A stretch of DNA of 64,000 nucleotides from Klebsiella phage RCIP0102. Positions 34,636 through 34,973 of this stretch are shown here, in pieces. Location: sequence record OR532896.1; one strand, given 5' to 3'. Every line of letters starts with the position of its first letter. The stretch's first letter is position 1. The position numbers were made by a program, and so were the translations under genes. A model generated the notes under the pieces. The model saw only the letters and a list, made by a program, of their open reading frames with translations. It ran no database searches and was not told the origin of the DNA.

Positions 34636-34973
34636 GGGAGCACGTTCTTCCGAGGTTCAACTTCTTTCGACAGTTCTTTCGGTTGTAGCTCCCGCAGGCC
34701 CTCAAGGGGTACGTTTAAACTCTTATCTGTTGCACACCGTTAGCTTAAAGGTTCCGGGTCCGATTTATCGGGGATAAGATATACACCGATGGATGTATAG
34801 GCCTTGAGGCGTACTCCCGATTGGCCATCGCCTCGGGGTAGCATGCACTTGCCGTTTATTTTCTAGCTGCACTTTGGTAGCAAATCACCGATGGTTTCGG
34901 ATGTTTTACGTGGGGATAACCAACAACGTCCACATCATACGTTACCCATGCGTACACATGGTGGGCGTACAAA
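34636..34973 (-). ncRNA. Candidate structured non-coding RNA or regulatory region (338 bp, GC-rich, ORF-free)
   Basis: No ORF of 60 aa or more in any frame except an antisense ORF overlapping rIII. GC content is visibly higher than its surroundings. Multiple short GC hairpins, two cGAAAg tetraloops and a long-range GGGAGC...GCUCCC pairing. Strand is assumed from the flanking genes. Confidence 0.3.

Follow-up and report, generated by a model that had tools for sequence, protein, structure and literature searches.

The genome of Klebsiella phage RCIP0102 (OR532896.1) raises the question of what lies between rIII, the gene of the lysis inhibition accessory protein, and a small gene for a Lys/Arg-rich protein homologous to 30.9 of phage T4. 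Here a stretch of 338 nt (34636-34973 of the 64,000-nt piece of DNA analysed, hereafter the window) has a G+C content of 49.7%, compared with 39.9% for the whole window. A first-pass annotation made from the sequence alone had located this gap correctly between the two genes, had noticed its raised G+C content and had proposed a structured non-coding RNA. The comparison with related phages strongly supported this proposal, through covariation in at least seven helices of a 143-nt element, hereafter the core, and in a pseudoknot, module A, and more weakly through two further modules, D and E. Judged from the aligned sequences, the spacer is a chain of at least six independently folding RNA modules and not one 338-nt RNA. 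The fold of the core is real and kept by selection, and it is the gene-sense transcript that folds; this upkeep by compensating changes, together with its exchange between phages, indicates that the core very probably has a function. It is new to Rfam, confined to phages, patchy in distribution and variable in context.

Distinct copies of the core were gathered from GenBank phages, IMG/VR and metagenomes. The whole spacer was compared with those of the Tequatroviruses slur03 and T4, Muldoonvirus PS2, Roskildevirus Cronus and Moonvirus CF1, and also with Tegunavirus fHe-Yen9-01, Gelderlandvirus SEA1 and Karamvirus. We numbered the core from C1 of the motif CGGCAAG, at window position 34854, so that core position p corresponds to window position 34855-p. 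It is composed as follows:

34716-34858, minus strand: core RNA cassette, 143 nt, defined by covariation, a covariance model and thermodynamic centroids
34855-34858 with 34716-34719, plus C1-G135: P1, the closing stem
Core 2-4 with 53-55: helix Pm
Core 16-22 with 35-42: helix Pa
Core 56-62 with 69-75: helix Pc
Core 76-82 with 128-134: helix Pd
Core 84-87 with 92-95: helix Pe; the cap is UAAA in this window and as a rule GAAA or GUAA
Core 98-100 with 116-118: helix Ph
AUGG at core 27-30 (Pa loop; 34825-34828) with CCAU at core 63-66 (Pc loop; 34789-34792): loop-loop kiss

Phages of Escherichia, Shigella and Yersinia share the conserved block of 135 nt (34720-34854) with this Klebsiella phage at about 95% identity; the rIII proteins of several other core-bearing relatives are just 57-79% identical. 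When 27 distinct sequences were aligned with MAFFT, 95.9% of the 1345 cells belonging to the 50 proposed pairs were paired, compared with 26-42% when the partners were slid, and compensatory changes of the kind that the first-pass annotation had proposed to look for in other T4-like phages were found in 27 of the 50 pairs, both sides of which had changed (7-11 in the slid controls). The covariation score was 0.254, against at most 0.078 for slid partners, and none of 500 shuffles reached the observed values. With an alignment fitted to the covariance model, pairing was seen in 99.8% of 958 cells, and 19 of 40 pairs were changed on both sides versus 1-6; controls on such pair counts leave some phylogenetic signal, the slid-partner control retains the relatedness of the sequences, and the gap to that control is very large.

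P1 lies just outside the conserved block, is 4-8 bp long and has sequences that are unrelated between lineages and yet complementary (CUUAUAG/CUAUAAG, CAAACAG/CUGUUUG, CAUAUUA/UAGUAUG, GUAUAAU/AUUGUAU and UAAA/UUUA). P1, Pm, Pc and Pd abut with zero linker bases and so form a perfect four-way junction. The kiss is supported by the change of G30-C63 to A-U in three sequences (L003, L018, L028); C4-G53 became U-A and G100-C116 became A-U in one sequence each. About 54 bases of the core are invariant, most of them outside the covarying helices. A possible pseudoknot of 9-12 with 120-123 is invariant in all copies and thus carries no covariation signal, and a second one may join 23-25 to 45-47. 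Bases 23-25 have alternative partners at 30-32 or 45-47 (window 34825-34832 and 34808-34832), each with some compensatory support (GGC/GCC to GAA/UUC or GGA/UUC; C25-G45 to U-A), and these competing pairings could represent alternative conformers or a conformational switch. Our first tertiary model, which paired 29-32 with 52-55, was replaced by Pm and the kiss, both of which are 100% paired and covarying. An all-against-all listing of column covariation was discarded, being dominated by one divergent sequence, and the AU-rich bases preceding CGGCAAG, considered as a -10 box, proved to be the 5′ strand of P1.

The thermodynamic centroids of the window and slur03 copies independently recovered P1, Pm, Pa, Pc, Pd, Pe and Ph. 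The folding energy of the core lies about two standard deviations below that of shuffled sequences (z = -2.0), and that of the gap, taken as a single sequence against shuffled ones, gave z = -1.9 on the minus and -1.2 on the plus strand. Folding energy is therefore only modestly unusual for both gap and core, and the strong evidence is the sequence comparison and not the thermodynamics.

The strand that folds was indicated by the number of G·U pair cells in the core, 85 against 10 A·C, which shows that the gene-sense (minus) strand is the one selected to fold, as fits an RNA. This asymmetry also counts against conservation acting at the level of the DNA (a replication origin, a recombination hot spot or a single-strand initiation signal) or of a decayed or very small protein gene, a family of readings to which we give hardly any credence. 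They would account for the G+C content above that of the surroundings, for a patchy presence such as mobile DNA has, for the resemblance of P1 to terminal inverted repeats and for short ORFs (open reading frames) of 27-38 codons on the minus strand. However, the inverted repeats vary wholly by lineage while the interior is conserved, which is the opposite of transposon ends, and with the core in single copy and no target duplication at the T4/slur03 junction there was no sign of a miniature inverted-repeat transposable element or other transposon. Indels of 1 nt in PS2, Cronus, PKM.Lu.22.1 and a 99%-identical copy in KPV15 (loci L002, L003, L027 and L048) break every short ORF, close relatives included. 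Since, in addition, the substitutions are compensatory and are neither synonymous nor placed at third codon positions, the core is neither a gene nor a pseudogene, and the degenerate coding sequence that might have turned up in homologous phages was not there. The origin-like element that had been suggested for the segment found no support either, the G·U excess pointing to a folded transcript of the gene strand; to our knowledge, T4 has no mapped origin near gene 31 or rIII.

None of the 4227 covariance models of Rfam 15 matched the window at gathering thresholds. When 34200-35400 was searched at E values up to 10, only Atu_C8, at a terminator (20.9 bits, threshold 50), and snoZ242 (11.6 bits, threshold 90) appeared, and five related loci gave nothing relevant. 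ARAGORN found no tRNA or tmRNA gene in the window; the same tool found 12 tRNAs in the loci L074 and L075, which shows that it performs on related DNA. By BLAST there was no copy of the core in 5,426 complete E. coli genomes or in 72,556 plasmids (PLSDB). Among 185,579 species genomes, scanned with a first pattern, there was no real match to the core; a second, looser pattern gave 120 chance matches there, and the 80 of these loci that were scored with the model all stayed below 17 bits. A metagenome scan returned only near-identical T4-like copies and two coding false positives, and a further viral scan one coding false positive (L199). We also considered mimicry of 16S or 23S ribosomal RNA, and a cluster of 8-11-mers matching 16S helix 26-27 proved to be at chance level: the best ungapped match to an rrn operon scored 22.3 bits (shuffles: mean 21.3, maximum 28.2), and the best gapped sense-strand score of 32 was equalled or exceeded by 16% of shuffles. 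In the full-text literature searched, neither the core nor its sequence was described; a description in other papers or an unnamed entry in the large catalogues of candidate RNAs (e.g. PMC10690425) is possible. The core is thus apparently an undescribed RNA family and fold; new in this sense covers family and fold, and the functional kind may be a known one.

The core is one link of the chain. Alignments and the raw sequences both revealed discrete modules in the spacer, whose presence and order vary among phages. Besides the core, the following were recognised here:

34946-34961, minus strand: hairpin X′, CCAUGU-GUAC-GCAUGG, identified by eye, with little variation to judge from
34890-34940, minus strand: module A, an H-type pseudoknot, from an 18-lineage alignment (A4)
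34863-34889, minus strand: module B, hairpin GGUGAUUUGCUACCAAAGUGCAGCUAG, its compensatory change read by eye
34696-34712, minus strand: module D, hairpin GUA-CCCC-UUGA-GGG-CCU (CCCUUGAGGG), kept in T4 and in other genera
34636-34693, minus strand: module E, a domain closed by GGGAGC/GCUCCC, from an RNAalifold consensus
34606-34630, minus strand: hairpin masking the Shine-Dalgarno (SD) region of 30.9, GGAAG, by pairing with an upstream CUCC

Module A was found in nearly all T4-like spacers examined, that of T4 included. Its stem 1 is GUGG/CCAC, its stem 2 pairs the loop UGGUU with a downstream AACCA, and its third loop is A-rich (GUAAAACAUCCGA). Over the 18 lineages its covariation score was 0.436, compared with at most 0.148 for slid partners, and 38 cells were changed on both sides versus 7-11 in the slid controls; stem 2 has been rewritten by lineage as GUAGU/ACUAC, GUGAG/CUCAC, GAUGG/CCAUC or CAAGGUU/AAUCUUG. 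The leader of T4 gene 32 mRNA contains an H-type pseudoknot that is conserved in T-even phages, and module A resembles it in lying in the leader of a gene for a small nucleic-acid-binding-like protein; the sequences, however, are unrelated, and A is followed by more hairpins and not by an unstructured operator.

In module E, which encloses a helix CCGA/UCGG and a GAAA-capped hairpin, 7 of 17 pairs were changed on both sides in an alignment of just 7 sequences. The pairing is maintained as GGCGA/UCGCC in place of GGGAGC/GCUCCC in Cronus, and as CUGA/UCAG in place of CCGA/UCGG in Moon-type phages. In the alignment of 7 sequences the SD-masking hairpin of Cronus has the pairing CCUC/GAGG. Hairpin X′ also occurs in Cronus, where an A-to-G change yields a G·U pair. 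In module D the variants CCCUUAGGGG, CCUCUUAGAGG and GCCUUCGAGGC preserve the pairing, and in some phages D sits 5′ of module A. In module B, T4-type phages have CACUGC/GUGUG in place of CGCUAC/GUGCG, a compensatory change read by eye. The place of B varies: it precedes the core on the 5′ side in this window and in fHe-Yen9-01 and follows it on the 3′ side in PKM.Lu.22.1, an unrelated phage of the Grimontviridae, and the Salmonella phage SEA1 has B but no core. We had considered B as a MotA-type middle promoter for the core, which is ruled out by its covariation as a hairpin and by its position 3′ of the core in PKM.Lu.22.1.

All hairpins named in the first-pass annotation are present, and the majority are conserved: CCGAUAAAUCGG corresponds to helix Pe of the core, CCCUUGAGGG to module D, and the pairing GGGAGC...GCUCCC to the closing helix of E. 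A further one, GAGGCG...CGCCUC, is present as a possible alternative or tertiary pairing (Pb). As for the two cGAAAg tetraloops reported, one is likely, and the first lies instead in the long-range helix CCGA/UCGG (CUGA/UCAG in Moon-type phages). A long structured 5′ leader, as had been proposed, agrees with the SD-masking hairpin and with modules A, D and E. The core does not suit this idea, as it may be absent, changes its place within the spacer and is found next to other genes in an unrelated phage.

The mobility of the core became evident when its distribution was examined. The covariance model found it in 14 of 30 rIII loci from IMG/VR, with T4, SEA1 and others negative. Among GenBank phages, about 400 records contain it, compared with 1004 encoding 30.9. 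About 157-159 of 161 Klebsiella phages carry it, and roughly a quarter of 548 Escherichia phages. It is single-copy: there was one match to the model in the window, and no part of the gap had a second copy in these 64 kb. Its orientation is always in the sense of transcription. Within the T4-like spacers we observed five arrangements. Moon-type phages and Cronus have the core 2-4 nt past the rIII stop codon, and in this window and in PS2 it follows modules A and B. In the other three it is flanked by A on one side and on the other by X (slur03), B (fHe-Yen9-01) or D (L050). In PKM.Lu.22.1 (76 kb) it begins 7 nt past the stop codon of an unrelated gene (PHROG 6599) and is followed by module B, an intrinsic terminator about 55 nt on and a sigma-factor gene. 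P1 of this copy has a sequence of its own (CAAACAG/CUGUUUG), several helix changes are compensated, and its module B contains a 27-nt exact match to Escherichia phages.

T4 itself provides the empty site. Its spacer of 244 nt (NC_000866, 130541-130784; L005, 3042-3285) contains modules A, D, E′ and X and lacks the core, so that the absence of a T4 feature here, as stated in the first-pass annotation, holds for the annotation of T4 and not for the sequence, which includes homologues of A and D. The E′ hairpin of T4 and SEA1 replaces E at its position and has a conserved loop, CAAUGYCAAUAAGN; in T4 this 14-nt loop reads CAAUGCCAAUAAGU. Module X is a multi-helix element of about 115 nt, with a long-range closing helix UCGAGGAG/CCUCUUGA and a hairpin AAUGAUU-UGCG-AAUCAUU. 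In otherwise near-identical Tequatrovirus spacers, the junction CTTGAATGT is followed by nothing, as in T4, where it reads directly into GAATGATG, by a hairpin cassette of about 50 nt, or by the core. Natural near-isogenic pairs with and without the core are slur03 and T4, and VR20 and a close relative (IMG/VR contig 2706795394).

The cassette of about 50 nt (cassette F, GCGUCAGN-AAAAGGUUA-NCUGUCUAAG) stands exactly at the junction where sister phages have the core. It was seen in L056, L058, L061 and L063 (at about 1880-1940) and in L049, and recurs in another genus with a different closing stem, the inner helix being kept (CAGA/UCUG versus CAGC/GCUG). The contigs L074 and L075 (positions 1501-2350), which come from phages with sizes of 97 and 149 kb, have just the C-terminal 40 residues of rIII. 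Directly after these comes an array of tRNA genes (12 tRNAs in 3.1 kb), the first of which opens with TTTATTGGAGATT, the same sequence as the start of the T4 spacer; this sharing suggests an old recombination junction at this site.

Small hairpin cassettes that come and go among phages (D, B, F and UUGCCG-NNNN-GGCAA) also invite the reading that all modules, the core among them, are stability elements that shield the rIII and 30.9 messages from host RNases without a specific partner. The spacer is in fact a train of stable hairpins with an order shuffled between phages, and the core often starts a few bases past a stop codon, as a 3′ untranslated element would. The REP and BIME mosaics of enterobacterial intergenic regions are comparable, in that transcribed spacers there also hold short structured elements whose number and order vary. 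REP elements, however, are simple palindromes with hundreds of copies per genome, whereas the spacer modules are single-copy and phage-specific, and the core and module A have complex folds. A folding energy merely about two standard deviations below shuffled sequences is not what would mark out a barrier, and around 54 invariant bases, a kiss and a linker-free junction amount to far more constraint than stability needs. A mere RNase barrier is disfavoured by the many invariant unpaired bases, and we hold this explanation to be improbable for the core.

A complex junction clamped by a kiss, with many invariant unpaired bases and a closing P1, is what riboswitch aptamers such as those of the purine and lysine classes present at an mRNA site upstream of a gene. 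The core might accordingly act in cis as a regulatory sensor, be it an aptamer like that of a riboswitch or an RNA for processive antitermination of the put or EAR type, governing read-through or translation downstream: of 30.9 and its terminator in T4-like phages, or of the terminator and the sigma-factor gene in PKM.Lu.22.1. In keeping with this, the core is always sense-oriented upstream of a gene, the PKM.Lu.22.1 terminator lies just before the sigma-factor gene, each of the two pairings open to bases 23-25, which exclude one another, has partial support, and a hairpin masks the ribosome-binding site of 30.9. The conserved structured aptamer expected of a riboswitch is thus there, but neither a conserved expression platform nor an association with the genes of a single pathway was found: what comes next on the 3′ side of P1 changes with the phage (module A, D or B, or other hairpins), the distance from the core to the start of 30.9 varies by more than 100 nt, and the downstream genes, 30.9 and a sigma factor, are unrelated. 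Core-free phages such as T4, moreover, express 30.9, and no riboswitch, put or EAR family of Rfam matched. A classical riboswitch is disfavoured because a conserved platform is missing and the genes downstream are unrelated, a switch serving 30.9 alone is unlikely, and a cis-acting sensor in general we regard as unlikely, though as a possibility to be taken seriously.

Self-cleaving ribozymes of the known classes are common in phage genomes, and the core resembles a typical small ribozyme in its size (about 140 nt), in its pseudoknotted junction and in having unpaired bases that are invariant. A new class of ribozyme, or a processing signal, might cleave the transcript of rIII and 30.9 or set free a stable small RNA, and the core does lie between two cistrons, at a place where other phages have tRNA genes after a fragment of rIII. 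The four-way-junction form of the hairpin ribozyme also has linker-free helices with a tertiary contact between neighbouring arms, a likeness in topology only; a contact of this kind requires these two arms to lie side by side. The core, however, shares no sequence or loop with the hairpin ribozyme, and its own contact is a Watson-Crick loop-loop pairing. With no match to a ribozyme family of Rfam, no cleavage site that could be named, and T4 and many relatives doing without the core, a catalytic or processing role seems quite doubtful.

Two other kinds of phage element are closer to the core in habitat than in structure. PeSLs combine a simple stem-loop with an early promoter and occur in many repeats per genome (Arbiol et al., 2010, PMC2839356; Comeau et al., 2014, PMC4122927). 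Like them, the core belongs to the short intergenic non-coding cassettes of T4-like genomes that are gained, lost and shuffled at module boundaries, and a PeSL-like unit even flanks this locus (34303-34424). Unlike them, it is single-copy and 143 nt long, has at least seven covarying helices and contains no promoter consensus; no minus-strand promoter or terminator consensus was found within 34636-34973. The T4 RNAs rnaC and rnaD (species 1 and 2) are also phage-encoded structured RNAs of about 120-140 nt from the same phage group with no function assigned, and one phage lineage has tRNA genes directly after an rIII fragment, at the locus of the core. They sit, however, in the tRNA cluster and mature with the tRNAs, T4 has both of them and lacks the core, and an unfiltered search with the core model through the T4 tRNA region, which includes them (70908-71171), reached at best 6.3 bits (E = 1.3), at a tRNA.

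Taking these comparisons together, we favour, with only slightly better than even confidence, the reading that the segment is a transcribed chain of modules in which the core is a self-contained functional RNA cassette acting autonomously. The spacer between rIII and 30.9 would be read on the minus strand as part of the transcript. Modules A, D and E and the SD-masking hairpin, which themselves or as counterparts occur across T4-like phages, would form the structured leader of 30.9 and may tune the translation or stability of its mRNA. The core would be an optional cassette, present or absent among close relatives, inserted at several sites and carried into an unrelated family. Its fold and its invariant unpaired bases are kept wherever it is inserted, it has its own closing stem and it has no conserved neighbour, and for these reasons we propose that it behaves as an autonomous RNA domain, an accessory RNA gene. 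Such a domain would bind a conserved partner. Candidates are a protein of the host or of the phage, the machinery of transcription or of translation, and a small molecule, and the domain could work either after excision from the mRNA or while still within it.

Several observations weigh against this reading. In T4-like phages the core always lies within the rIII-30.9 spacer, so that a role tied to the rIII-30.9 transcript is possible. The 27-nt identity in module B indicates that the PKM.Lu.22.1 copy may be a fairly recent transfer and not a long independent test of autonomy. The competing pairings of bases 23-25 hint at a switch, which would favour a regulatory role. The diversity behind the covariance model is shallow (effective sequence number 1.29), and the double changes come from perhaps 8-10 lineages, all of them in phages of Enterobacterales. 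Finally, the function of the core, unlike its structure, is purely something that we infer.

The 30.9 gene downstream is itself well conserved. Its protein is 84-93% identical across genera, compared with 57-79% for the neighbouring rIII. The first-pass annotation had suggested a pair of an RNA and an RNA-binding protein, for which 30.9 would be the candidate protein; it occurs both with and without the core. A low-confidence AlphaFold model consists of one helix (residues 29-53; mean pLDDT 66) and a basic disordered N-terminus; there was no relative in the PDB by sequence and no Pfam match. In some database records the protein goes under the name 1,4-alpha-glucan branching enzyme or under that of a lysis protein, apparently through misannotation. 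The basic ORF had been given as 58-68 aa; the 58-aa form stands, and the 68-aa form (34429-34635, ATG at 34635) is probably over-extended. The ATG at 34605 (MAKQ..., as in T4 30.9) is the start kept in all homologues, and the non-coding spacer therefore measures 368 nt (34606-34973). The extra 30 nt of the longer form (34606-34635) hold the hairpin that masks the ribosome-binding site.

The surrounding genes have the following order:

36224-36793, minus strand: cd
35338-35661, minus strand: gene 31 (gp31)
34974-35237, minus strand: rIII, lysis inhibition accessory protein (ORF list; PHROG 1457, E = 9e-41; annotation in identical phages)
34974-34976, minus strand: stop codon of rIII, directly after which the structured spacer begins
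34429-34605, minus strand: 30.9 homologue, 58 aa, Lys/Arg-rich (PHROG 1427)
34403-34424, minus strand: intrinsic terminator that closes the rIII-spacer-30.9 transcription unit; an early-promoter-like leader for 30.8 comes next
33939-34307, minus strand: 30.8

This minus-strand order matches that of T4. The 1-kb stretch around the spacer is 100% identical to Klebsiella phage pzk-kv4 and 99% to many Slopekvirus/Jiaodavirus-type phages. The segment had been described as free of ORFs; no ORF of 60 aa or more exists in any frame over 34636-34890, and the rest, up to 34973, lies under a plus-strand ORF (34891..35136) that is mostly antisense to rIII. Nor is it the only gap of this kind, as 28774-29000 is also free of ORFs of 60 aa, though holding one of 59 aa. 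That region, the sole other stretch of more than 200 nt without a 60-aa ORF, is ordinary and contains, besides the 59-aa ORF, a terminator (GGCCUUCGGGCC and a U run) and a late promoter TATAAATA. Following the terminator at 34403-34424, 82 nt of the early-promoter-like leader are repeated with 79% identity upstream of the next gene (34303-34424 and 33293-33384, minus strand), and this arrangement looks like the PeSL promoter-terminator cassettes of T4-type phages.

The spacer, even in the 244-nt version of T4, is unannotated in the records examined, though T4-like phages have been studied intensively. Complex folds that are constrained to this degree have usually proved to be ribozymes or ligand sensors, or else components of RNA-protein machines. 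A bolder and, in our estimate, improbable version of the proposal is that the core is a horizontally mobile RNA gene with an accessory function that needs no protein, either as an aptamer or decoy for a host defence protein or an immune signalling nucleotide, or as an RNA that reprograms RNA polymerase or the ribosome. Like the genes of anti-defence proteins, such a gene would come and go between co-infecting phages depending on the host, and host-dependent gain and loss would explain the near-universal presence of the core in Klebsiella phages and its patchy presence in those of Escherichia. A non-coding element that travels alone between phage families would add RNA to the mobile accessory functions of phages.

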